A program made the position numbers and the translations under genes. Under the pieces are notes generated by a model. It was not told the DNA's origin and did not search any database. It was given only the letters and a program-made list of their open reading frames with translations. DNA of 64,000 bases from Mayamaea pseudoterrestris (lineage: Eukaryota): assembly GCA_027923505.1 (NCBI GenBank), contig BROI01000019.1, positions 372,001 to 436,000 of the forward strand, read 5' to 3'. The first letter of the stretch is position 1; each line of letters begins with the position of its first letter. Positions 44,595-64,000 of the stretch are shown piece after piece.

Positions 44595-45163
44595 GGCGCA
44601 AAAGCAGTAGAAGCCGTTTGCTTGGTGTACCCACAGTAATAGATGAATGACGAGCGAAGAGCGATGAGCAATTGAGGTGCGAAAGGCGAGGAGCAAGCGT
44701 TGCGTCAATTTAACACATGCGGGAAAGTGAGCACTCCATGCAAGCACCAATAAATCTGTTGCTAAGATGTTGACAGGAGCCGTAAAATGACATGCAGAAA
44801 TTAGTGTTTCGGGTGGTACGACATCGTCCTTCGACCATCATCGTCCATCGCTTGATGTTTGTGGACGAGCCAATTGTCACCATGCCGTGTCGCACAGGTT
44901 TTGCAACAGTGCATCGCCAGTTAACACATCCGCGGGGCCGGGAGGTGGCAGGATCAATGGTCCCAGCTCACGTGTAGCATCAGTTGTTTGGGAGGGTAAA
45001 TATCCATACAGTAACCAGCTACACGGTGCTACAGTGTGTGGCCTTTAATGACTACCCCCAATAGCTTACTGCAGCAAGCTCAATATAGTGATCTGCAACA
45101 AAATGTATACCAATGAGTTTCAGCATGTAAGTTTGAGGTAAAACTACGGAATGAGTCCTCCTT

Positions 45164-49328: not shown

Positions 49329-51956
49329 TTACCAACTTATGAATGTGTATTCGAACAAGCGAACTAACCGATGAACTAAATTTTGCAGCAACGACCTGGC
49401 ACCGTCAATATCCTCCTTGGCAATCTTGTCTTCGGCGGGAATCGCCGTGTACTGCGCCATGATATCGTCCAAGGAAACTGTGCCGTCGCATGCGGAGAGA
49501 AGGTCGCCTTCTAACTCATCCAGTAATGGAAACCACTCTTGCCCTAGACCGTGCATCGGGCGATCTACCATGCGGACTCGTGTCGTTGACTCAATCGTCT
49601 CTTCGTCCATTGGACCAACGTCGAGCTCCAAAGACGATTGAAATTCCACGCGACCAGAGCGGATAGGAAACGCAGGCTCTGCCTTCAGTGTCCCTTCCTT
49701 AGACACTTCGCTCAGCAATTTCCGTACATCGGGTTGCTTTCTGCTAATCACAAAAGGTCCCATAACGAGCATTTCAATTGCACCCATTGACGAAAGAAAG
49801 GTGCGAATGGCATCCTGCGGCGTCTCCACAATTGGTTCACCTGGTAATGCATTGAAGGAAGTATTCAGAACCATCGGAACTCCAGTGCGCTTGAAAAAGC
49901 TCGCGATTAGCTTATGGTAGAAACGATCATTTGCCTTGGTAACTGTCTGCAGGCGGCTTGAACCGTCAACGTGCGTGACAGCTGGTATCAGCGACTGCTT
50001 GTCGTCGCGAACCATTGCCGTGATGCTCATGTAGGGACTAGCGTTTCCATCTGCGGGGCACTGCGCTCCAAGATCAAACCATTTTGATGCTTCTTCGGCA
50101 AGGACACTCGGAGCGAACGGTCGAAAAGTCTCGCGACTCTTGACTTTTTCGTTTATAAAACTGAGTAAGCCTTTCTTCCTCGGGTCGGCTAGGATGCTTC
50201 GATGGCCTAACGCGCGAGGCCCCATTTCCGACCGTGATCGATACAACGCTACAACTCCACCGGAGTCTATTTCGTCTACAACTATTTTTATGAGCTCCTG
50301 CTCATTCCTGATAGTTTCAACCTCAAGCCAAGGTTTCGCCTTGCTAATTGCTTCCTCCATGCTGTCTTCAATGGGATCTGCACCAAGGTATGGAGTAAGT
50401 GGCTTGGACCATAGTGCGACTGACCTACGAACTCCAAGCTGTCGTCCAGTGTCAAGTCTCTTGTTCCCGAAAAGCCCAAATGCACAACAGCCCACAGCGA
50501 TACCCTCATCGCCGGGGTAAGGTGAAATGTACGTTTGGTCAAAGCCGAGCTCACGCGCCAATCGACCGTTCAAAACAGAGTTGAGAGCAACGCCTCCCGA
50601 TACGCAAAGATTGCTTTCTCCTGTTTCTTGTTTGAAATGTTGAACAAAATCCATCAAGACTGTTTCACAGTCGCTTTGCATGCGATGAGCCAGGGCAATA
50701 GCGTCGAGCGCCACGCGAGCTGGGAATCGTTCCTTGTCGAGTGTTTCTGTTTCGTCGAGGCAATCATCAAAGTCATATCGCTTTCTCCGCGTCCCATCTT
50801 TTCGAAACAAGTCTGGATCATCGCGGCTTGTGCAAGGAATACCTTGTATCAGTGACCTATCGATTTTGAGCGAACCTTCCTCGTAGAGCCTGCCACTGAC
50901 AATGGGTGTCTTGTGTAGTAACGGTTTCATAGTGTCCTGTCCATTCTTCCACTCATAGTCGGCCCAGGGCGCCAGCCCCATGACCTTGCCGCAAGCGTTC
51001 CAGTCACCAAAAATGTGGCTACTGACTCGCGAGTACAATGCTCCCACCGAGTCCATATTTTCAAACCCATGATTGTAAAGCGTTGGCGGCGTGCGTTCGG
51101 CCTGGAACCGCTTAAAGACGGGGTACAAGTCAATAGACGTGCTTGTTTTCGTGAAGCGATACACCGACTCGGCTTCCCTATAGTCAAAAACGTTGGAGGC
51201 TGCCGCTTTAAGCAAGTTGCTTGGTATGGTATGAAATGTTTCAAGCCCAAAGTTCAAGTCACTTATGTATGTTGTATCGTCCGTCTTTATTGCGTGTTGC
51301 ATAGTTCGAAAGCTTTCTCCCATACCGTCCATGACTACAACAAGTCCAGCGTCAAATGGCGCCTGCGTCGCTGTACTGTAGGCATGCGCCAAGTGATGCG
51401 AAAGCTCCAAGCGATACTTTGCGTCCGTCAGCAAGTTTTCAGGATCGGTATATCCATCCTCTTTTCCGCCATTGATGCGTAGACCAGCTTCCCATTCCAA
51501 ATGTTCAATGTTGTTTGATTCTAGTGGCAGTATTCTGTTATGATGATTGTTCATGACGACCGTGTCAATGTTCTCAAGGTGCAAGTCGAGTGTTTCCAAA
51601 CACTCTTCGACCAAGACTGCCGCGTTTCCTCCATCATGTTTGCGCCGCGTCAAGCGCTCCTTTGACACTGCAAACAAAACCTCGCCAGTATCTTTGTCGG
51701 CTGCGCAAATAGTGGCATCGTGTGTGTATTTGGTCAAGCCAATGACGAGTTTGGTGTACGGTGGAGCGGCAAGGGGATTTCTGTTGTTCGAGTCTTCATA
51801 AGGATTGTCGTACAAGTCGGCCTCGAAAGGAGTTGATTGAAGTCGTTGCGTATTCCGTATCCTTGATTGCTGATTTCTTTTATAAACTTGAAGCGACCAT
51901 GACTCAGCTACAGGGATCACTAGCCAAGCAACTAAAGCTGCTCGAGCGTCCATCAT
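49329..51956 (-). CDS. NodU/CmcH/TobZ-family O-carbamoyltransferase with N-terminal signal peptide
   Basis: HDATI, KERLTRRKH, HHLAHAYS, VMDGMGE, GKVMGLAPW, GGVALNSVLNG, EMGPRALGHRSILADP, KSRETFRPFAPSV, HVDGSSRLQTV, LNTSFN..GEPIVETP. Likely ATG 51956 (MMDARAALVAWLVIPVAES-W). Confidence 0.92.
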   Translation of the reverse strand: MMDARAALVAWLVIPVAESWSLQVYKRNQQSRIRNTQRLQSTPFEADLYDNPYEDSNNRNPLAAPPYTKLVIGLTKYTHDATICAADKDTGEVLFAVSKERLTRRKHDGGNAAVLVEECLETLDLHLENIDTVVMNNHHNRILPLESNNIEHLEWEAGLRINGGKEDGYTDPENLLTDAKYRLELSHHLAHAYSTATQAPFDAGLVVVMDGMGESFRTMQHAIKTDDTTYISDLNFGLETFHTIPSNLLKAAASNVFDYREAESVYRFTKTSTSIDLYPVFKRFQAERTPPTLYNHGFENMDSVGALYSRVSSHIFGDWNACGKVMGLAPWADYEWKNGQDTMKPLLHKTPIVSGRLYEEGSLKIDRSLIQGIPCTSRDDPDLFRKDGTRRKRYDFDDCLDETETLDKERFPARVALDAIALAHRMQSDCETVLMDFVQHFKQETGESNLCVSGGVALNSVLNGRLARELGFDQTYISPYPGDEGIAVGCCAFGLFGNKRLDTGRQLGVRRSVALWSKPLTPYLGADPIEDSMEEAISKAKPWLEVETIRNEQELIKIVVDEIDSGGVVALYRSRSEMGPRALGHRSILADPRKKGLLSFINEKVKSRETFRPFAPSVLAEEASKWFDLGAQCPADGNASPYMSITAMVRDDKQSLIPAVTHVDGSSRLQTVTKANDRFYHKLIASFFKRTGVPMVLNTSFNALPGEPIVETPQDAIRTFLSSMGAIEMLVMGPFVISRKQPDVRKLLSEVSKEGTLKAEPAFPIRSGRVEFQSSLELDVGPMDEETIESTTRVRMVDRPMHGLGQEWFPLLDELEGDLLSACDGTVSLDDIMAQYTAIPAEDKIAKEDIDGARSLLQNLVHRLVRLFEYTFISW

Positions 51957-52228
51957 TGTCGGCGATTTTGTGGTTGGTTGCGCGGAAGCGAAGTTGTCAA
52001 GATTTGAGTACCGATACGACTCAACAAGTATCGCACTGTTACTGTCACGACCACGAGTTGGCGACGCAAGATTCGATGATGCCGATCGATCTTCATTCGT
52101 CGACCGTCCCAACCTTTCATTGACGTTCGTTCGTCTCATCTCGTCATTGCAAGGCTCGAAACTCTTAAGATACGTTAAAAGGCAATCTTCACAGAACCTA
52201 ATACTTTTGACTGCGAGACAACAGTAGC

Positions 52229-54150
52229 ATGAGTGGCACCAGCTCTTCTTCCAATGCGCCTCCATTGAAAGGCAAGGATGACTATAGAGTCGATGGGTAC
52301 GTACGTCGAATCTGGACAGATCAAGATCATCTGAGCATGATGAATGGTCTACCAAAGGGATTTAAGAGCTTGATCAGTCATGTGTGCGCATGCCTTGCAC
52401 TTGTCCTGATCCGCTCCACAACCTCATCCTCATTCCGTCTCATCACGCACCTTTGACTACAGTTTGGAAAGCGTTCAACCAGCCTATGCGCATTTCAATG
52501 GCACCATGTACGCTGGAACCATCCCCACGAACCACGACAAGCGTCGCGGCGAAATGATGTTTTGGTTGTTTGAACCGGAGACGCAGGCAATACCCGATAC
52601 GATTGTTCTCTGTAAGTTGCCTTGTAAAATAATGGTCGGAACTACTGACGCTGTACTTCAAAACATTCACTATCTCACGATATCCAATGCCATTCGCAGG
52701 GCTCAATGGAGGTCCAGGTTGCAGCAGCTTCAACTGCGGCGTCTTGATGGAACACTCACCCGTCACACAGCCATTGCATTCGGCGGGCTACTGTTGCCTC
52801 CAGCCGCAGCCAGACTTTTCCGTCAACGAGTATGCCTGGACTAAGCATACGACCATGCTTTACCCAGAGTATCCAATTGGAACGGGCTTTAGCTACGGTG
52901 ATAATCCCGAGACGGAGAATGAAGGAGCGAGCGACTTGTATCAGTTCCTTCTCAACTTTTTCGAAATCTTTCCCCACCTTGCGGAACACAAGTTCTTTGT
53001 CACGGGCGAGTCGTACGCTGGCATGTTTGTTCCGTCCGTCGCTCGTTTCATTCATCGGGCCAATTTGGAACATCCCGAACACCACCAAATCAAGTTGGCG
53101 GGAGCGGCTCTTGGCAATGGATGGATGGACGCTGCAGTCCAAGGTCCAGCCACGATCGACTATTCCTGGTGGCACGGATTGATTGATGAGCCTACTCGCG
53201 ACGCGCTGCACGTTGAATGGAAGAATTGTTACGAAAAGAAGCAATTTGGCAATTCGCCCTTTCATCCGTTTAATGTGCAGGATGACTGTGGAATCATGTG
53301 GGGCATTCTGGCCGCGGCTGGCAATCCCAATGCCTACGACATTTCCACTTGGGATCCAAACGTTGATCAAGTCACTTTTGCGAGTGAGGCCTTTTACAAC
53401 TTGCCGAGCGTCAAGGAGATGTTGCATGCCCCCGCCAATATTACATGGCATGGCTGTCAAGGCATGGGACGTAGACGCTTAACATCGTTTGCGGACAAGC
53501 ACCAACAGCATCGTCGATTGTACATGGACAATGACAAGCCACTATCAGTCGTCCCATACGTTGGCGAACTTTTGGATGCGGGCGTGCCAGTCTTGATTTA
53601 CAATGGTGACCGCGACATGACGACCAACATGGTTGGTACCGAGTTATTGTTGAATCGTATGAAGTGGAAGGGGCAAGACAATTGGTTGGATGCGTCGCGA
53701 GGATTGTGGTTGCTACCGGATGAGTTGCGCAAGCCTGGCGAGCAAAAGCAAGCGGGCTGGGCCAAGGAGAGTCAGGGCTTGACATTTGTCGTTGTTTATA
53801 ATAGCGGTCACATGGTTCCCTACAACCAACCTGCACCGGCGGGAGATTTGCTGGTGCGATTTCTGACGGGAAAGAGTTTCATTGATGAAAAGGCGGAGCT
53901 CATTCGTGTCAATAAAGTCTCAGAGAAAGACCAATCTGCTTCATTGGATCGTCACCATGAGAAAGTGGCGTCTTATGATGCTGCGTACATGTTGGAAGCT
54001 TTCCCAACTTCCAGTAGTTTAGCGCTCGACGGCGGAGCTCATCAGCAAGCTATCACGGTCGTCTTGTCAATGCTTGTCGGCGCTCTGCTTGCAATTCTTT
54101 TTATGAAACGCCGCGAAAATCATTGGCACTCCTACGAGATGGTTGTTTGA
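52229..54150 (+). CDS. Serine carboxypeptidase (peptidase S10) with C-terminal TM helix; exons 52229-52296, 52463-52611, 52700-54150
   Basis: Spliced WLNGGPGCSS, GESYAG nucleophile, YNGDRD, SGHMVP. Introns 52297-52462 and 52612-52699 restore the frame. 5' end uncertain. Confidence 0.92.
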
Positions 54151-54189
54151 TAGCTTATAAGTTGCTAGGGTAGTAGGCATTGAGCAAAT

Positions 54190-57100
54190 AAACAGCTGCA
54201 GGCTGAGACTGGTGAGAACTTCTCATCAGTCATTTTGCAGTGCACAAACGCACTAGCCAGTCATCTATTTTTGTAGCGCACCTAACATAAGGATGTTAGC
54301 ACCATTCTGGCTTGATTTGGGCATACACATGGCTCAAGGTATGGGCATGTGAAAGGGATGGCAGCTGCTGGCTGAGACTGGTGACAAGTTGTCACCAATC
54401 ACATTGCAGTCCACAGACACACCAGCCAGTCAAGTTTTCTTGTAGCGCACCTGAAAGAAGGATGTTAGCACCATTCTGGCTTGATTTGGGCATACACATG
54501 GCTCAAGGTATTGGCATTTGAAAGGCATGGCAGCTGCTGGCTGAGACTGGTGACAAGTTGTCACCAATCACATTGCAGTCTACGGACACACCAGCCAGTC
54601 AACTTTTCTTGTAGCGCACCTGAAAGAAGGATGTTAGCACCATCCTGGCTTGATTTGGGCATACACATGGCTCAAGGTATGGGTGTTTGAATGTCATGGC
54701 ATCTGCGGGCTGAGACTGGTGACAAGTTGTCACCAAATACATTGCCATCCCCTAAAACTCCAGCCAAGTTTACCATCTTGTAGCGCAGCCTAAAAAATGA
54801 TGTTGGCACTATTCTGGTGTAATTTGGGCACCTACAGGGCCTGCTGTAGGGGCGTTTGAATGTCATGGCATCTGCGGGCTGAGACTGGTGACGAGTTGTC
54901 ACCAAATACATTGCCATTCCCTGAGACACCAGCCAAGCTTACCCCATCTTGTAGCGCAGCCTGAAAAAGGATGTTGGCACCATTCTGGTGTAATTTGGGC
55001 GCCTACAGGGCTTGCTGTAGGGGCGTTTGAATGTCATGGCATCTGCGGGCTGAGACTGGTGACAAGTTGTCACCAAATACATTGCCATCCCCTGAGACTC
55101 CAGCCAAGCTTACCATCTTGTAGCGCAGCCTGAAAAATGATGTTGGCACCATTCTGGTGTAATTTGGGCACCTACAGGGCCTGCTGTAGGGGCATTTGAA
55201 TGTCATGGCATCTGCGGGCTGAGACTGGTGAGAAGTTGTCACCAAATACATTGCCATCCCCTGAGACACCAGCCAAGCCTACCATCTTGTAGCGCCACCT
55301 GAAAAATGATGTTGGCACCATTCTGGTGTAATTTGGGCACCTACAGGGCCTGCTGTAGGGGCGTTTGAATGTCATGGCATCTGCGGGCTGAGACTGGTGA
55401 CAAGTTGTCACCAAATACATTGCCATGCCCTGAGACACCAGCCAAGCTTACCCCATCTTGTAGCGCAGCCTGAAAAATGATGTTGGCACCATTCTGGTGT
55501 AATATGGGCACCTACAGGGCCTGCTGTAGGGGCGTTTGAATGTCATGGCATCTGCGGGCTGAGACTGGTGACAATTTGTCACCAAATACATTGCCATCCC
55601 CTGAGACACCAGCCAAGCCTACCATCTTGTAGCGCCGCCTGAAAAATGATGTTGCCACCATTCTGGTGTAATTTGGGCACCTACAGGGCCTGCTGTAGGG
55701 GCGTTTGAAATGTCATGGCATCTGCAGGCTGAGACTGGTGATAAGTTGTCACCAAATACATTGCCATCCCCTGAGACACTAGCCAAGCTTACCATCTTGT
55801 AGCGCAGCCGGAAAAATGATGTTGGCACCATTCTGGTGTAATTTGGGCACCTACAGGGCTTGCTGTAGGGGTGTTTGAATGTCATGGCATCTGCGGGCTG
55901 AGACTGGTGACAATTTGTCACCAAATACATTGCCATCCCCTGAGACACCAGCCAAGCTTACCATCTTGTAGCGCAGCCTGAAAAATGATGTTGGCACCAT
56001 TCTGGTGTAATTTGGGCACCTACAGGGCCTGCTGTAGGGGCGTTTGAATGTCATGGCATCTGCGGGATGAGACTGGTGACAAGTTGTCACCAAATACATT
56101 GCCATCCCCTGAGACACCAGCCAAGCCTACCATCTTGTAGCGCCGCCTAAAAAAATGATGTTGCCACCATTCTGGTGTAATTTGGGCGCCTACAGGGCCT
56201 GCTGTAGGGGCGTTTGAATGTCATGGCATCTGCGGGCTGAGACTGGTGACAAGTTGTCACCAAATACATTGCCATCCTCTGAGACACCAGCCAAGCTTAC
56301 CATCTTAAGCGCAGCCGGAAAAATGATGTTGGCACCATTCTGGTGTAATTTGGGCGCCTACAGGGCCTGCTGTAGGGGCGTTTGAATGTCATGGCATCTG
56401 CGGGCTGAGACTGGTGACAAGTTGTCACCAAATACATTGCCATCCCCTGAGACTCCAGCCAAGCTTACCATCTTGAAGCGCAGCCTGAAAAATGATGTTG
56501 GCACCATTCTGGTGTAATTTGGGCACCTACAGGGCCTGCTGTAGGGGCGTTTGAATGTCATGGCATCTGCGGGCTGAGACTGGTGACAAGTTGCCACCAA
56601 ATACATTGCCATGCCCTGAGACACCAGCCAAGCTTACCCCATCTTGTAGTGCAGCCTCTCACACGCAGCCTGAAATGTTGTTGGCACCATTCTGGCTGTA
56701 ATGGTGTTGGGCACCATCTGGTAATTGGGACCTGGGCCTCTGTCGGGGCATTTGAGTGTCATGGCATCTGCGGGCTGAGACTGGTGACAAGTTGTCACCA
56801 AATACATTGCCATCCCCTGAGACACCAGCCAAGCATACCATCTTGTAGCGCAGCTTGAAAAATGATGTTGGCACCATTCTGGTGTAATTTGGGCGCCTAC
56901 AGGGCCTGCTGTAGGGGCGTTTGAATGTCATGGCATCTGCGGGCTGAGACTGGTGACAAGTTGTCACCAAATACATTGCCATCCCCTGAGACTCCAGCCA
57001 AGCTTACCATCTTGTAGCGCAGCCTGAAAAATAATGTTGGCACCATTCTGGTGTAATTTGGGCACCTACAGGGCCTGCTGTAGGGGCGTTTGAATGTCAT

Positions 57101-59350
57101 GGCATCTGCGGGCTGAGACTGGTGACAAGTTGCCACCAAATACATTGCCATGCCCTGAGACACCAGCCAAGCTTACCCCATCTTGTAGTGCAGCCTGAAA
57201 AATGATGTTGGCACCATTCTGGTGTAATTTGGGCGCCTACAGGGCCTGCTGTAGGGGCGTTTGAATGTCATGGCATCTGCGGGCTGAGACTGGTGACAAG
57301 TTGTCACCAAATACATTGCCATCCCCTGAGACTCCAGCCAAGCTTACCATCTTGTAGCGCAGCCTGAAAAATGATGTTGGCACCATTCTGGTGTAATTTG
57401 GGCACCTACAGGGCCTGCTGTAGGGGCATTTGAATGTCATGGCATCTGCGGGCTGAGACTGGTGACAAGTTGTCACCAAATACATTGCCATCCCCTGAGA
57501 CACCAGCCAAGCCTACCATCTTGTTGCGCCACCTGCAAAATGGTGTTGCCACCATTCTGGTGTAATTTGGGCACCTACAGGGCCTGCTGTAGGGGCGTTT
57601 GGGTGTCATGGCATCTGCGGGCTGAGACTGGTGACAAGTTGTCACCAAATACATTGCCATCCCCTGAGACACCAGCCAAGCTTACCATCTTGTAGCGCAG
57701 CCTGCAAAATGATGTTGGCACCATTCTGGTGTAATTTGGGCACCTACAGGGCCTGCTGGGCCTGCTGTAGGGGCGTTTGAATGTCATGGCATCTGCGGGC
57801 TGAGACTGGTGACAAGTTGTCACCAAATACATTGCCATCCCCTGAGACACCAGCCAAGCATACCATCTTGTAGCGCAGCCTAAAAAATGATGTTGGCACC
57901 ATTCTGGTGTAATTTGGGCACCTACAGGGCCTGCTGTAGGGGCATTTGAATGTCATGGCATCTGCGGGCTGAGACTGGTGACAAGTTGTCACCAAATACA
58001 TTGCCATCCCCTGAGACACCAGCCAAGCATACCATCTTGTAGCGCCGCCTGAAAAAAGGGGTTGCCACCATTCTGGTGTAATTTGGGCACCTACAGGGCC
58101 TGCTGTAGGGGCGTTTGAATGTCATGGCATCTGCGGGCTGAGACTGGTGACAAGTTGCCACCAAATACATTGCCATGCCCTGAGACACCAGCCAAGCTTA
58201 CCCCATCTTGTAGTGCAGCCTAAAAAATGATGTTGGCACCATTCTGGTGTAATATGGGCACCTACAGGGCCTGCTGTAGGGGCGTTTGAATGTCATGGCA
58301 TCTGCGGGCTGAGACTGGTGACAAGTTGTCATCAAATACATTGCCATCCCCTGAGACACCAGCCAAGCCTACCATCTTGTAGCGCCGCCTGAAAAATGAT
58401 GTTGCCACCATTCTGGTGTAATTTGGGCACCTACAGGGCCTGCTGTAGGGGCGTTTGAAATGTCATGGCATCTGCAGGCTGAGACTGGTGACAAGTTGTC
58501 ACCAAATACATTGCCATCCCCTGAGACACTAGCCAAACTTACCATCTTGTAGCGCAGCCAGAAAAATGATGTTGGCACCATTCTGGTGTAATTTGGGCAC
58601 CTACAGGGCTTGCTGTAGGGGTGTTTGAATGTCATGGCATCTGCGGGCTGAGACTGGTGACAAGTTGTCACCAAATACATTGCCATCCCCTGAGACACCA
58701 GCCAAGCTTACCATCTTGTAGCGCCGCCTGAAAAATGATGTTGGCACCATTCTAGTGTAATTTGGGCACCTACAGGGCCTGCTGTAGGGGCGTTTGAATG
58801 TCATGGCATCTGCAGGCTGAGACTGGTGACAAGTTGTCACCAAATACATTGCCATCCCCTGAGACTCCAGCCAAGCCTACCATCTTGTAGCGCAGCCTGA
58901 AAAATGATGTTGGCACCATTCTGGTGTAATTTGGGCACCTACAGGGCCTGCTGTAGGGGCATTTAAATGTCATGGCATCTGCGGGCTGAGACTGGTGACA
59001 AGTTGTCATCAAATACATTGCCATCCCCTGAGACTCCAGCCAAGCTTACCATCTTGTAGCGCAGACTAAATAAGGAAGTTGGCACCATTCTGGTGTAATT
59101 TGGGCACCTACAGGGCCTGCTGTAGGGGCGTTTGAATGTCATGGCATCTGCGGGCTGAGACTGGTGACAAGTTGTCACCAAATACATTGCCATCCCCTGA
59201 GACACCACAAGCCAGCTTACCGTCTTGTAGCGCAGCTCTGCAAAATGATGTTGCCACCATTCTGGTGCAATTTGGGCACCTACAGGGCCTGCTGTAGGGG
59301 CGTTTTGAATGTCATGGCATCTGCGGAGCTGAGGCTGGTGACAAGTTGTC
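54190..59350 (+). repeat. Tandem satellite array, 169-bp unit, about 30 copies
   Basis: Consensus read by eye: GGCTGAGACTGGTGACAAGTTGTCACCAAATACATTGCCATCCCCTGAGACACCAGCCAAGCTTACCATCTTGTAGCGCAGCCTGAAAAATGATGTTGGCACCATTCTGGTGTAATTTGGGCACCTACAGGGCCTGCTGTAGGGGCGTTTGAATGTCATGGCATCTGCG, recurring every 168-171 nt. Confidence 0.98.
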
Positions 59351-60017
59351 GAATGGTGCTAACATGCTCATTTATGGTGCGCTATAAGATATGATGACTG
59401 GCTGATGGCTCTCAGTAGACAGTAATGCAACTGGAGAGAACTTGTCACTGACACAATGCAGTTCCAGTTCATATGGCTACAACGTTTCCTCACCCTCTGT
59501 AGTCAGTTTCCAAGTGAGCCGGATGATCAGTCCTTTACCTTGGTTTATTCTACAGGGGTCTTATCCTACAAAACGCTAGTTGATAAAGCAGTTCTCTGGA
59601 AAATGAGATGAATTACGATTGGTTGAGAAGGAGTGATTGATGTATCAGTTGACTGCAATGTGACTGTTGAGAACTTCTCACCAGTCTCAGCCCACAGATG
59701 CCTTGTCATTCAGTTGCCCAAAGAACATGCCATGCCTAAGCTCCTATCACACCAGCATGGTGCCAACATCATTTTTCAGTCTGCGCTACAAGATGGTATG
59801 CCTGGTTTGGTGTCTCGGTAGACCACAATGTGACTGCTGAGAACTTCTCACCAGTCTCAGCCTGCAGATGCCTTGACATTTGATTGCCCATATAACATGC
59901 CATGTATACATCCAAATCATACCAGAATGGTGCCAACATCATTATTCAGTCTGTGCTCCGAAATGGTACACCTGGTTGGTGTCTCAGTTGACTGCAATGT
60001 AACTGTTGAGAACTTCT
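59351..60017 (-). repeat. Inverted, diverged copies of the 169-bp satellite (59351-59450 and about 59640-60017)
   Basis: GAATGGTGCTAACAT..GCGCTATAAGAT and GAGAACTTCTCACCAGTCTCAGCC are reverse complements of array segments. Confidence 0.9.
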
Positions 60018-60412
60018 TAACACCGTTGACGATTTCGCAGTCAACGTCTTACCTCCAAAAAGCTCCGATACAGGGTCCTTGGCCACGGTCTGTACAGCTC
60101 TTGATGGAGATGGCTCGTCGAATAGTCTTGCGCTCGCCACTACACGAATACGACTGCACTCTCGTCGCAAACTAGTAGTTCTATATTGTGAGCTTATCGC
60201 TACATCGCTACATCAACCACTCGGAAGATCATCCGATCAATCCGTTTCTTTCAATCACATTACATCAGTTGTAACTGGTCATTCCATTCATACAACGCAT
60301 CCACACGACGGTTGCGCACTTTCTTCATTCACATGTCACATACGACAGCTGCGGACTCGACACAAGCTAATTAGGGTTCGGGCTCTTGACTTCGCCGCTC
60401 TGCGACTTGTCA
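60018..60412 (-). repeat. Putative 3' LTR (about 390 bp) of the Copia element
   Basis: PPT GAGGGGAG (60420-60413) is followed directly by TGACAAG. The satellite resumes at about 60017. The exact LTR end (60018 or 60027) cannot be fixed without the 5' LTR. Confidence 0.7.
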
Positions 60413-63400
60413 CTCCCCTCGGGTACGCTGCTCGTCGTAGCCGCATTCTTGTCTTTCACAATCGCATACGATGTATCGCCGCGCCAAAACAATACTGGCT
60501 TGAGCAATGGCATCGCATCACAGTACGGCAGGTACTTCGTCAGTACGTCCGCAATGTTCTCCTTTCCGTCAATCTTTACAAACTTGATAATCCCCGCAGC
60601 AACTGCCCAACGAACACGATGGTAGGCCAACGCATTGTGTCGCTTGGACAACGTCGAACTCGGGATTGTAGATTGCGTAATCACTGCTTGGTTGTCTCCG
60701 TACATCCAGGCAGACTTCTCCAATGGTACGCCCATAGCCATGAGCGACGCACGTAGAGAAATGCTGATATCCGTTCCACTCTTTGCTACGCCGAATTCCA
60801 ATCCGAAGGTCGCAGTCTCGACTGTAGCCTGGAGTTTGCAATGCCAGTCGACAGGCGTCTGGTTGACAAATGACAAAACTCCTTCCAATGACTTGCCTGT
60901 CACCATGCAATGCATGAGACACGCATCCTCGAAAGTTGATGTTCGTACGGTCACACCCTTTGGCGGTGGGTAGACATCCAACATCTCATCAACTCCATCC
61001 TTCCCGTAAACGCTGCGCTCCCAATCTTGTTCCTCCATGGTGCCGAAGTGCTCCTCGTTGGCTGGCCACTTCGTACGGAAACGGATTGCTGCGTCCGGTA
61101 ACTCTCGCAAATATCCACAGACTCGCTTCACCCGCTGCAGGTGTCCCTTGCGCGGCTCCACACGGAATCGCGACAGACTCACAACTGCAACGGCAATGTC
61201 AAATCGTCCCAAAGTAATCGCCCACTGAAGTGCTCCGACTAGAGACTGGTAAATCTTCTTCTCTTGGTCGTTCAGCAGCTCGCTTTGGTCAAGTTCTGGA
61301 TGATCGTCTTTGTCGATTGGTGATGAGTACTTCTTCGGTGGCCCTCAAACAAACGCTCATACTGCGCCAAGAGTTTTGCAGAACGTAGGTCTTGGCCGAC
61401 CAGCAGAGGGTTCCGTCAGGGTCTCGTCCAAAGTCACCGCCCGAGATGATACTCGGGATGTCCAACACCTTTGAGCTTAAACTTGTACTTCTCCTCTAGC
61501 ATCTTGGAAGAACGCTGCTGGATCGTCTGAAATATTCAACAGATCGTCGACCCATACACAGAGGTAGTCGTAGCTGTCGCCGGGCGTCCTTGATCCACAG
61601 GTCGGAATCTGCAATAGGACGGCTTCCACCCTTCCGCAAGAAGGGCGCCGCAGCCGCTCGCGGAAACGTTCGCTTGTTCCGCAATCCGATAAAGCCTTGA
61701 CGATGACCAGGATGTGTCCTTGCGCGCCCGAACTGGGCCTCCAACGAAGTATACCTTCTCCTTGGTGAACGCTTCGAGATAAGCATTCCCAATGTCACCG
61801 ACCATGCACTTCTCTTGCCGTTCGCTTCTCCAATGACGAGAGCTAGACGCATTGCCTTCAATGAGATAACACTGGAGTAGGCATCGTCGTTGTCTTTCGT
61901 CATGTGGCCGCCTGCAACGAGACGTGCCTTGTATCGCAAATCGTGCTTGACATCGTACACAAAGTGGACTCGGATCTTCTCGTAACCAGTTGGTGGTGTT
62001 GTGGTGGAACTCGGACCGAGATCTTGAAACGTCTCGTACTCGTCCAGGTTCGCAAGCTCCACGCCTTCCGCGTCCGTCCACTTCGTGTGTCCTGCAGCTT
62101 CTTGGAGACGACGCGCTTCCTTCCAGTCTTGGGGTACTTGGACTCCAAACTTGTAGCGCGGTCCGTTCTTTTGCTGCTCCATTCGGTCGCCACCTTGCGC
62201 GCAACCTTCTTGGCGTTCCGGGCCCATCGGTTCAACGATGACCATCCGTCCTTGTCGAGAAGATTATGCTTTTGCGCGTAGGCTGCCACTGATACTTTGT
62301 CGCTTTCGATCATCGCGTTGAGAGGCTCCCAAGTCTTGGATCCATCATCCCATTGTACAAGGACGTTCCACTTGGAGTGCTTCCAGTTTTTCGACTTGCT
62401 CGTCAGCGGACCCTGATGGTCTAGAATCTCCTTGAAGAACCATTTACGCTCAGGATTCGCCATGTCTTGGTTCACTTCGGCCTCGTAGAGATCGGAAACC
62501 TCGACATACGACATGACTTCGTCCGCTTCGCCGTTACCAAGCTTCAGCATCATTTTAATGTTCTGATGGTTCTGGGCGTCGCGGTTGTTCAGCTTGCTCA
62601 TGACGGTCGCTCGAACTTCTTGCCCGTCGTCCGTCTTCATGAGAAACGACTTGCCGATAAGTTCGTCGGGTGCATACTTTGGGAGTTTGCGCCACGGATT
62701 GATGTTCTTCTTCTTCGGCTTGTCGTCATCGTCATCGGCAGGATTCGGATCTTCCTCCCCGTCGGTCATATCGTCGTCTTCCGGGTACTCCACCGTCTCG
62801 ACCAAAGGGGTATCGTCTTCGTCAGGAATGAAAGAATCATCGTCTCTGCTGTCGGCATCGGTAATCTTCTTGATCATTTCCGGCATAAGGATCTCGCCAC
62901 CTAGACCAGGTACGGTATAGAGACGCGGCTCCCCTTCTTTCATGACTGGGGAAGCAGGTGCCGGTACGCGAAGGTTCAAAAAATTTTGGGTTGTTTTGGG
63001 GTAAGCACACCGATTCGCGTCACTGATCTCGTGGGTCTTCGCAAATCGCAGATAAGTACGTCAGGTCGTCTCCGCACGTCGTGTTGGGACCAAGCCAGTA
63101 CGCCAAGGCGCTGGCGGGTACCGGGGCTTCGACATCCTTGACAAGTAGTTGAACAATTTCAAACCAACGAAAATGCAAATACGCCGAACCGGTGACTTGC
63201 CTAGTGATAAACTCGATGGGAGACTTGTCGTCTACAAGGTGATGCGACAAAGAGGTACATCTCGGGTCTGAAAGAGTAAAGCTGTGAAGCCAGAAGATGC
63301 GAAGTGCCCGTTCGGTCCATAAGTCGTCTTCATGACTTTCCTTTATGTGCCCGATGATGCGCCCGGCTGATTTGATTCATAGTACGTTGGCTGTGACGAC

Positions 63401-63990
63401 GGGCTAATCATGAACTCGCGACACATACTACGGGAAAGCACAAACGTTTCGCGACATCCGAGAAGACTTCCAACGGAGCTCCAAACTCGCGGATGAAATC
63501 AGAATCGTTTCGCACGCCACCTTTCGTCCGCATGGGATACACGAAATGATCTGAGCGTATACCATAGGAATAGCTGCACGATGTGCACCTGTACGTCCGC
63601 CCGATATTGACTCGGCCCATGGCTGGCTCGTCAAGAACAGTTGGGCCAGATCATCTAGACGTGTAGACGTTCAGGAATCGGTCTTGATGATTCGTGGGGG
63701 TATCGGGCGCTTCGGCATGTTGAACTGTGTGCTGTGGCGCAAAAGTATCCTTGATCGCTGCGCCGGGTACCATGCAAAGTTTGGCAGCAATGCGTCGATA
63801 TCAGGTTTCTTTGGCAGGATAGACTTGTAGGGCTGATAGACGAGATCCGCATTGGTACTTCTGTACGACGGCACAAACATTCAGCTCCTTCTGGTATAAA
63901 CAGGTTGATTGTCGGTCCGAGATTCGTGATACGCCACGCTGCTCTGACGATTTGGTGTATTTAGCGCACAGTATATAAACGTTCACACCC
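60367..63990 (-). pseudogene. Frameshifted Copia pol (INT-RT-RNase H)
   Basis: Pol motifs are split over several frames (60367-61212, 61496-62245, 61536-62204, 61900-62979, short fragments above 63000). Confidence 0.85.
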
Positions 63991-64000
63991 GTGTGTGGTA

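Follow-up and report, generated by a model that had tools for sequence, protein, structure and literature searches.

In Tribolium castaneum, the satellites Cast1-Cast9 have monomers of about 170 and 340 bp, account for about 4% of the genome and lie in the chromosome arms; they are exchanged between chromosomes, their longer arrays are more homogenised, and they are distinct from the centromeric satellite (PMC4675708). The nucleosome-length satellite CEN178 of Arabidopsis, present as one CENH3-defined array per chromosome, is preferentially invaded by the centrophilic Ty1/copia element Tal1 (PMC11735389), and the Tyba arrays of Rhynchospora, about 17 kb long, carry CENH3 and are interspersed in large numbers with genes (PMC10954556). 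The centromeres of the diatoms Phaeodactylum tricornutum and Fistulifera solaris are gene-free, short, low in GC and not highly repeated (10.1101/096016, 10.1101/2021.11.10.468027), and a centromere atlas of 325 genomes recorded cryptic states in all three protists and all four algae sampled (10.64898/2026.09.17.752431). Satellite DNA of the kind described below was not found for diatoms in the literature searched, from which supplements were excluded and in which subscription papers were mostly not included.

We analysed a window of 64,000 nucleotides (the whole stretch of DNA under study) on a 721-kb contig, C19, of Mayamaea pseudoterrestris. Its 169-bp satellite resembles Cast1-Cast9 in belonging to dispersed families of nucleosome-scale monomers, a likeness of organisation that implies no sequence relation, but differs in its strong CpG decay, its stacked multi-family islands, its 30-Mb genome and the insertion of Copia at a fixed unit position (PMC4675708). 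Like CEN178, it is a nucleosome-length satellite preferentially invaded by a Ty1/copia element, but its arrays are kilobase-long and numerous on a contig, and ordinary DNA holds 14 of the 38 elements; the available part of the Arabidopsis account reports no position preference of Tal1 within the CEN178 monomer (PMC11735389). The arrays are interspersed with genes, as Tyba arrays are, but they are unevenly spaced, and any CENH3 on them is hypothetical (PMC10954556). The array is gene-free like the centromeres of the two diatoms, presumably of the same broad lineage, but it is tandem and has a GC content of 51% (10.1101/096016, 10.1101/2021.11.10.468027). Overall, we consider that the array is probably one island of dispersed, CG-methylated satellite heterochromatin between genes (probability of about 0.6).

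Structure of the array and of its island

The features of the locus, in positions of the window, are:

52633..54150, + strand: serine carboxypeptidase gene next to the array, main open frame (PF00450, E 2e-74)
54190..54711, + strand: first three units of the 169-bp satellite, at the array edge and diverged (70-80% identity with a central unit)
54712..59350, + strand: 27 units of 169 bp, of the homogenised type, with pairwise identity averaging about 96% (0.956)
57291..57309, no strand: one copy of the conserved 19-bp palindrome, which each unit has once, at unit positions 6-24
59351..59448, - strand: inverted partial unit of a diverged type, same satellite family
59449..59636, no strand: decayed LTR piece of another Copia family
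59637..60017, - strand: inverted diverged units, about 76% identical to the main type
60018..60412, - strand: 3' LTR of a young Ty1/copia element, the two LTRs of which are 99% identical
60413..64000, - strand: Copia internal region, with pol in several frames, extending past the window end
62200..62499, - strand: chromo-fold module, upstream of the reverse transcriptase region

Anchor splitting yielded 30 satellite units at 54190-59350, and the TRF call had a period of 169 and 29.7 copies over 54271-59350. The earlier note had described about 30 near-identical units; the number held, but not the uniformity, as units 1-3 share 70-80% identity with a central unit and unit 15 contains a 32-bp insertion. 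Unit 1 carries the palindrome in a compensated form (TGAGAA-C-TTCTCA), and an internal duplication spans 16 units, with units 8-10 matching units 24-26. Over the 30 units, exact matches numbered 19 for TGGTGACAAGTTGTCACCA, 24 for CACCATTCTGGTG, 22 for CCTACAGGGCCTGCTGTAGG, 26 for ATGTCATGGCAT and 55 for CTGAGAC. The layout is head-to-tail, with a GC content of 51%, and the array is non-coding (longest frames across it, 112-131 aa).

The array starts 40 bp after the stop codon of the last gene (54148-54150), in agreement with the spacing first noticed, and the junction is spanned by a contig from public DNA run X1, with 3 differences from the window in 494 bases and a 34-bp insert at the junction. 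The locus is interstitial (426-438 kb on C19), and the distances of 426 kb and 290 kb to the contig ends argue against the subtelomeric domain proposed at the outset. Nor does the gene-dense region end abruptly here, as had been supposed: the array opens a CpG-poor island of 16 kb, which stops near C19:442.5 kb, and genes resume downstream, with a long ORF beginning at C19:445.4 kb. Within the island, the diverged inverted units (59351-59448 and 59637-60017) are interrupted by Copia sequence; the decayed LTR piece at 59449-59636 has lost 8 of the 11 CpGs of an intact copy. The terminal five bases of the segment 59637-60017, CTTCT, constitute the target-site duplication of the Copia element and lie within the palindrome. 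This element, the internal region of which (60413-64000) gave a weak RVT_2 match, below the cut-off, terminates at C19:437994, and the satellite continues beyond it.

Genome-wide distribution of the satellite family

Exact 16-mer matches (2249+2336, with 0 in the control) gave at least 4,585 copies of the 169-bp family, corresponding to 2.5% of the assembly, on at least 28 of the 41 contigs (a lower bound). On C19, the single contig mapped in full, five separate clusters make up 3.7% of the sequence; the largest spans 16 kb, at a distance of 185 kb from the window's array, and the spacing is non-periodic, all five being confined to the terminal 295 kb, after 426 kb free of arrays. The family occupies at least five separate places on each of C1, C8 and C18, and an array on C11 reaches about 30 kb (sampled at its ends). 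Genome mapping of the consensus, a check suggested beforehand, therefore revealed a dispersed, high-copy family and ruled out a local tandem expansion; the five clusters on C19 also speak against one domain per chromosome, with contigs not being proven chromosomes.

Identity to ten other array samples was 0.90-0.95. Many short arrays (2-7 units) are present at dispersed sites, and these arrays, together with array edges, consist of old diverged units; long arrays consist of one homogenised type common to several contigs. Array ends fall at many unit positions, and no shared terminal sequence was seen at them. The family is one of several unrelated satellites, all CpG-depleted, that lie side by side and have units of 169-187 and 347-371 bp, corresponding to one or two nucleosome lengths; satellite islands make up 8% of one contig. 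The motif ACAASTTGT has exact matches in the 169 and 347/348/356 families, a single occurrence in the 184/187 array and a one-mismatch form in the 181 array; it was rejected as a motif of all satellite families, being absent from the 171, 176/182, 234, 352 and 371 families. CCCTAA/TTAGGG repeats were found at none of the 21 contig ends checked, and chromosome ends are thus unmarked. Larger arrays may be unassembled, because 5 of these 21 ends break off in long-unit satellites.

Conservation of the palindrome

Enrichment of dyad symmetries over permuted sequence is a proposed centromere criterion (PMC5889037). The units had been described as rich in such symmetries; with 300 dinucleotide shuffles, this was borne out for the 9-bp stem (p 0.010) but not for general richness (stem number, p 0.31; summed stem length, p 0.12; DNA folding, z -0.3). 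The palindrome is the least variable part of the unit, with a variant frequency of 0.007 versus 0.037 at other non-CpG sites, and none of 20000 random site sets, nor any of 5000 permutations in a scan, varied as little. The low variation reaches past the stem, across positions 1-32; neither the 7-bp stem (0.047) nor the 5-bp stem (0.025) is conserved. Positions 12/18 were C/G in 401 of 439 motif matches, G/C in 22 and mixed in 5. Given that conservation is strongest in the 9-bp stem, the proposal that the units bind protein is possible, with binding predicted from the sequence. Template switching lets palindromes self-correct, so variation could drop without a bound protein.

Copia insertions within the satellite unit

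The Copia family inserted in the window (family 1) comprised 38 elements with host flank, grouped by hand. The 169-bp satellite hosted 15 of them (14 of 37 when the window's element is left aside) and ordinary DNA another 14; the remaining 9 had inserted into different satellites or CpG-poor DNA. The enrichment in the satellite was significant even with non-ORF DNA, of which the satellite makes up 13%, as the reference (p 1e-4), and could partly come from loss of insertions elsewhere. Ten of the 14 distinct sites lie at unit positions 156-169, a 14-bp arc beside the palindrome that was picked after the sites had been seen (Rayleigh p 4e-5), and nine of the 14 are located 14-19 bases to either side of the palindrome centre; the window's own Copia is at site 13, inside the palindrome rather than beside it. 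The 36 junctions outside the satellite displayed no target consensus, and a matrix built from them ranked hotspot positions 165-169 at 46-117 of 169, with weak power. Matching duplications were present in just four of the nine satellite-inserted elements having both flanks, so some junctions are recombined or misassembled.

Family 2 has 1 of 13 sites in the 156-169 arc and also carries a chromo-like module; the module cannot, therefore, explain the hotspot. General targeting of an open linker by all Copia families was rejected on the same count. The sites of family 2 have a periodicity of roughly 10 bp (scan p 0.035, 13 sites), too weak to use. For family 3, no recognisable 169-satellite flank was identified among the 22 matches listed, which were read by eye; one family 3 junction, at locus L141, is at site 169.

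The chromo-fold module was modelled with a pLDDT of 84, and its best structural matches were chromo/chromoshadow domains, with fold Z-scores of 5-6.4, under the tool's caution level of 8; Pfam and PDB profile searches detected no chromodomain by sequence. A single-sequence model was poor (pLDDT 56), yet 34 of the 40 weak rows listed were of the chromo type, and relatives were found upstream of RVT_2 in 7 of the 10 long proteins scanned. Ty1/copia elements of CoDi clade A have an integrase chromodomain (PMC2774666); the element described here has the Copia order too, its chromo-like module preceding the reverse transcriptase, a likeness by layout and not by tree, but satellite enrichment and a hotspot are observed here, whereas targeting data are absent from the available part of that account.

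CpG decay

The CpG observed/expected ratio over the array was 0.26-0.33, versus about 1.0-1.2 in genes. This contrast (0.27 versus about 1.0-1.2) supports the original view of a heterochromatin-type, nucleosome-length satellite in a diatom-like genome. In 383 units, the transition frequency was 0.129 at CpG and 0.016 at other sites, with CpG transitions seen for both strands; array-mean rates were 0.05-0.15 at seven of the eight CpG bases and 0.48 at the eighth, against a median of 0.013. Protection of the CpG at 73/74, near a putative nucleosome dyad, was considered, but the case for it weakened in a larger sample (from 0.02 to 0.05-0.06). The genome contains a DNMT5-like ORF (match to 7r76, E 5e-40). 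The findings on linker methylation reportedly come from Huff and Zilberman 2014. In the available part of one account, the organisms named for linker methylation are Micromonas, Aureococcus and Emiliania rather than diatoms, and DNMT5-dependent transposon silencing is described (PMC9998398); the DNMT5-like gene and symmetric CpG decay on repeats are points of likeness to these systems, but linker-restricted decay is not convincing here.

Interpretation

In an island of methylated satellite heterochromatin, the reading that we prefer, arrays would expand from old seeds through unequal exchange and conversion, and ectopic recombination would spread them. A DNMT5-type enzyme would methylate the arrays, with deamination then stripping their CpGs. 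Each unit would have a fixed chromatin register, most likely from a dimeric protein on the palindrome or from a phased nucleosome, in which case the palindrome would lie in or near the linker, and the Copia integrase would reach satellite chromatin via the chromo-fold module, inserting at the footprint edge. We infer every chromatin step of this scheme from the sequence. Factor-directed Copia integration beside the palindrome, with no centromere role, has a little under an even chance of being correct. We give a lower but appreciable weight to the absence of any bound factor, with template-switch self-correction keeping the palindrome and the hotspot arising from DNA shape or a weak integrase preference: the two Copia families choose different sites on the same 169-bp unit, and the 12/18 changes are compensated, with few intermediates, as quasi-palindrome correction would yield, but the low variation extends past the stem, conservation is lacking in the 7-bp and 5-bp stems and the outside-junction matrix, of weak power, does not place the hotspot high (46-117 of 169). 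An array of structured-RNA units, also proposed initially, is hardly credible: the 12/18 pair covaries (10 G-C, 9 C-G and 1 broken in 20 hand-picked units), but the hairpin loop would have 1-3 bases, the consensus energy is only -5.3 kcal/mol, Rfam gave no match at E up to 1 and folding with DNA parameters had a z of -0.3.

Taken alone, this array of 5 kb is unlikely to be the centromere. Satellite-type regional centromeres, in which the largest array per chromosome would load CENH3, this array being pericentromeric or displaced and Copia centrophilic, are unlikely, even though the unit is nucleosome-length, C19 and C11 have arrays of 16 kb and about 30 kb, respectively, and larger ones may be unassembled at the 5 of 21 checked contig ends in long-unit satellites. 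A gene at C2:130.1-130.6 kb (68% to H3) has diagnostic residues that we take to be CENH3-like, and C19 is without a Phaeodactylum-type low-GC peak (at most 2 windows of ≤32% GC per 3 kb). The Copia enrichment also resembles that of Tal1 in Arabidopsis (PMC11735389), but C1, C8, C18 and C19 each have at least five separate places, the GC content of 51% contrasts with the short, low-GC diatom centromeres (10.1101/096016, 10.1101/2021.11.10.468027) and C19, telomere-free at both ends, may not contain its centromere. It is quite unlikely, from the sequence features considered, that the palindrome is a box for a sequence-specific protein setting the nucleosome register and recruiting CENH3, with the arrays as satellite centromere units, possibly multiple, and a centrophilic Copia inserting at the footprint edge. 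A poly- or holocentromere, with many arrays along each chromosome loading CENH3 like Tyba in Rhynchospora, is very improbable: arrays of 3-30 kb among genes recall the mean Tyba array of 17.4 kb (PMC10954556) and the conserved palindrome could serve as a centromere-protein box, but the C19 arrays are non-periodic, with 426 kb devoid of them before the five in the terminal 295 kb, and Phaeodactylum ChIP peaks are typically one per chromosome (10.1101/096016). We also doubt strongly that a non-autonomous DNA transposon, Helitron- or MITE-like, transports the arrays as its internal or subterminal repeats; such an origin would suit the many dispersed arrays of 2-7 units and the multi-satellite block common to loci L021 and L026 (about 89-90% over several kb), but array ends fall at many unit positions with no common terminal sequence, and the shared flanks, among the matches listed, are other satellites or Copia LTRs.

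The palindrome and the Copia hotspot together single out one 40-bp candidate site for a binding protein and for directed integration; if neither holds, the arrays would be an ordinary satellite library, in a lineage with no apparent prior description of one. The presence of such arrays in a compact, diatom-like genome would make it possible to test directly whether repeat-based centromeres can exist in diatoms.

Structure of the array and its surroundings

The 169-bp array belongs to a genuine satellite family that is abundant, dispersed and marked by methylation scars. The tandem structure described in the earlier note was recovered both by TRF (period 169 bp, 29.7 copies, window 54271-59350) and by anchor splitting, which yielded 30 units. 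The description of these units as near-identical holds for most of units 4-30, which display few differences from the consensus (units 15, 21 and 30 deviate more), but not for units 1-3, which are only 70-80% identical to a central unit. The motifs picked out in that note are exact in 19-26 of the 30 units. The richness in dyad symmetries was upheld only for the 9-bp stem, which exceeds chance (p 0.010, one unit against 300 dinucleotide shuffles), whereas, measured in the same way, neither the number of stems (p 0.31) nor their summed length (p 0.12) nor the DNA folding energy (z -0.3) stood out.

The array begins 40 bp past the stop codon of a serine carboxypeptidase gene. A contig from a public DNA sequencing run (X1) bridges the gene end and the array start, with 3 of 494 bases differing and a 34-bp insert, and the junction is therefore unlikely to be an assembly artefact. 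Located precisely where the array begins (window 54189-54193), the insert starts with TG, is accompanied by a 5-bp duplication and resembles the footprint of a small insertion. The window (G000:C19:372001-436000, in an assembly of 30.6 Mb and 41 contigs) contains the following features:

1994-2166: 57-bp x3 tandem repeat, CpG-poor, within an open frame
44961-45064: isolated fragment (~100 bp) of a 176-bp satellite, between genes
49332-52361 (-): carbamoyltransferase of 1010 aa (PF02543/PF16861, a family better known in bacteria), close to the array
54190-59350: forward array of 169-bp units
59449-59636: decayed LTR piece
60018-60412: LTR of a Copia element (family 1), 5'-TG...TA-3', with TA in place of the usual CA

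The forward array is followed by an inverted partial unit, the decayed LTR piece and inverted diverged units, the last of these being split by the Copia element, which has LTRs 99% identical and a CTTCT duplication on either side. The CpG-poor island extends over about C19:426.2-442.5 kb, and genes then resume, so the array does not mark the abrupt end of the gene-dense region that had been proposed. Two divergently oriented histone-fold genes lie at the far edge of the island (G000:C19:442517-443517).

Distribution and CpG decay

A 16-mer from the unit occurs 2249+2336 times in the assembly (control, 0), a count corresponding to at least 775 kb, or 2.5% of the assembly, and the family is present on at least 28 of the 41 contigs among the matches listed. 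Contig C19, which was read end to end, carries five clusters (426-438, 488-491, 610-627, 656 and 701-706 kb; 26.6 kb in total, 3.7%) and none before 426 kb; 57.5 kb (8%) of this contig is taken up by CpG-poor islands. Within its array at G000:C19:488871-491528, a 1329-bp stretch is duplicated and the two halves have identical match profiles, which may reflect an assembly artefact. Identity was 0.956 inside the window array and 0.90-0.95 against ten other samples, two of which overlap. Old diverged types make up short arrays and array edges, and one type makes up the long arrays. At other loci, 169-bp arrays are adjoined by satellites of 171-187, 234 and 347-371 bp; these sort into groups, none of them significantly similar to the 169-bp family, and are all CpG-poor. 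Two such loci, L021 (C18:352-358 kb) and L026 (C8:1110-1116 kb), have in common an ordered block of 176-, 169-, 356-like and 371-bp satellites plus flank, at ~89-90%. No telomere repeat was found at any of the 21 contig ends checked, five of which break off inside long-unit satellites.

The observed/expected CpG ratio was 0.26-0.33 across the array, versus 0.93-1.21 in the preceding genes. In 383 units, transitions reached a rate of 0.129 at CpG bases, compared with 0.016 elsewhere. Array-mean rates from ~445 units, aligned without edge bias, were 0.05-0.15 for seven CpG bases and 0.48 for the eighth, whereas other C/G sites had a median of 0.013; the pattern held on both strands. Of the 11 CpGs in an intact copy, 8 have disappeared from the LTR piece within the island. 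The largest 169-bp array of C19 has a cytosine methyltransferase gene (PF00145, E 4e-56; G000:C19:603334-604275) ~6 kb away. Three methyltransferase-domain hits were obtained in the genome, one matching the solved structure 7r76 (E 5e-40), which we take to be fungal DNMT5. In Phaeodactylum, loss of DNMT5a has been reported to abolish DNA methylation and release CoDi elements (PMC9998398).

A conserved palindrome

Variation in the 19-bp palindrome at unit positions 6-24 was 0.007 per site, versus 0.037 at other non-CpG sites, a level as low as which none of 20000 random site sets and none of 5000 scan permutations came. The count of array-variant events agrees (2.4 in the palindrome versus 6.3), and the low-variation block spans positions 1-32; the other two stems listed in the earlier note showed no comparable conservation. 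Positions 12 and 18 covary (C/G 401, G/C 22, mixed 5 and other 11, in 439 matches), and the pair is kept in 19 of 20 hand-picked units spanning the subfamilies, although the swap may represent one or a few events, because the units are related. This pattern and the pairing fit a dimeric DNA-binding protein. Template-switch correction, which acts on quasi-palindromes, is an alternative cause of the conservation. The otherwise unrelated 347/348/356-bp family (G000:C19:641-656 kb; locus L036:6114-9868) has perfect stems of 11-13 bp (folding z -3.8 and -4.4), with the same core, ACAA(C/G)TTGT, as the palindrome.

Copia insertion in the satellite

The LTR of the window element has 76 exact end matches in the assembly. 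Family 1 junctions were classified from fetched flanks; those nested within the element itself were dropped, and two copies (C11:573 kb and C15:241 kb) yielded no host flank. Hand-grouping gave 38 elements: 15 were in the 169-bp satellite and 14 in ordinary DNA, the other nine being in different satellites or CpG-poor sequence. With the window copy excluded, 14 of 37 lay in the 169-bp satellite (p 1e-11 against a 3.5% share; p 1e-4 against the 13% of C19's non-ORF DNA that the satellite occupies). Junctions that shared site, orientation and subfamily were merged and a single imperfect one was discarded, which left 14 distinct sites, 10 of them at unit positions 156-169 (Rayleigh p 4e-5; p 0.0015, n=10, with orientations also merged and the window's site added). 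Relative to the palindrome centre, they lie at -61, -48, -28, -28, -23, -19, -17, -17, -16, -16, -15, -15, +14 and +14. No base consensus was found across 36 junctions outside the satellite. Counting against this picture, matching duplications are present in only 4 of the 9 satellite-inserted elements with both flanks.

The 13 sites of family 2, placed by eye using one locus and the first 100 of 179 matches, were scattered round the unit, and a single one fell within the arc 152-4 (Fisher p 0.0013); the hotspot is thus family-specific rather than a general open linker. One family 2 element (G000:C19:493274-499234), with an unbroken frame of 1987 aa, adjoins the 488-491 kb array. The constrained palindrome and the neighbouring hotspot suggest, at the level of sequence, that a protein or a nucleosome keeps a fixed register. 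Yeast Ty1, reported to insert at a fixed nucleosome surface, provides a precedent for register-specific insertion (PMC3545840). The Copia LTR (window 60405-60412) starts TGACAAGT, identical to the eight bases of the palindrome's left half, and the palindrome core TGACA...TGTCA (unit positions 9-21) reads like paired LTR ends; both may be due to chance.

The window element also encodes a module upstream of its RT region; among 10 long proteins scanned, 7 have relatives of this module ahead of RVT_2. The predicted structure (pLDDT 84; alignment with 70 of 150 listed relatives) best matched domains of the chromo and chromoshadow types, with Z scores (5-6.4) under the tool's caution level, and Pfam and PDB profile searches were blank. 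The Atlas cluster nearest to the module occurs most often in Bacillariophyta (two recorded members), marking the organism as diatom-like, and CoDi-A elements have been reported with a chromodomain of this kind (PMC2774666). This chromo-fold module may account for a pull towards silent chromatin. It does not explain the hotspot, because the other two Copia families seen have it too.

Centromere or dispersed satellite

A divergent H3 encoded at C2:130.1-130.6 kb is set apart by its N-tail, by one extra residue in a loop and by candidate substitutions that we take to be CENH3 marks, so a CENH3 test is feasible. A centromeric role for the satellite, raised in the earlier note, would accord with the unit length, the arrays of 16 to ~30 kb, the contigs breaking in satellites and the Copia enrichment. 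It is not favoured for the window array itself, given the many unevenly spaced arrays per contig and the GC content of 51%; moreover, the centromeres of two pennate diatoms have been described as short and low-GC (10.1101/096016; 10.1101/2021.11.10.468027). No low-GC peak of the type used to predict Phaeodactylum centromeres was detected on C19 (method after 10.1101/2021.11.10.468027). Our literature search, covering mostly open-access main texts, found no description of such a satellite family in diatoms, or of diatom satellite centromeres. The closest published match was Tribolium Cast1-Cast9, described as non-centromeric, with monomers of ~170 and 340 bp on chromosome arms (PMC4675708). For the dispersed 169-bp satellite, the palindrome constraint and the Copia hotspot are the sequence-level signals that make a fixed register worth testing.
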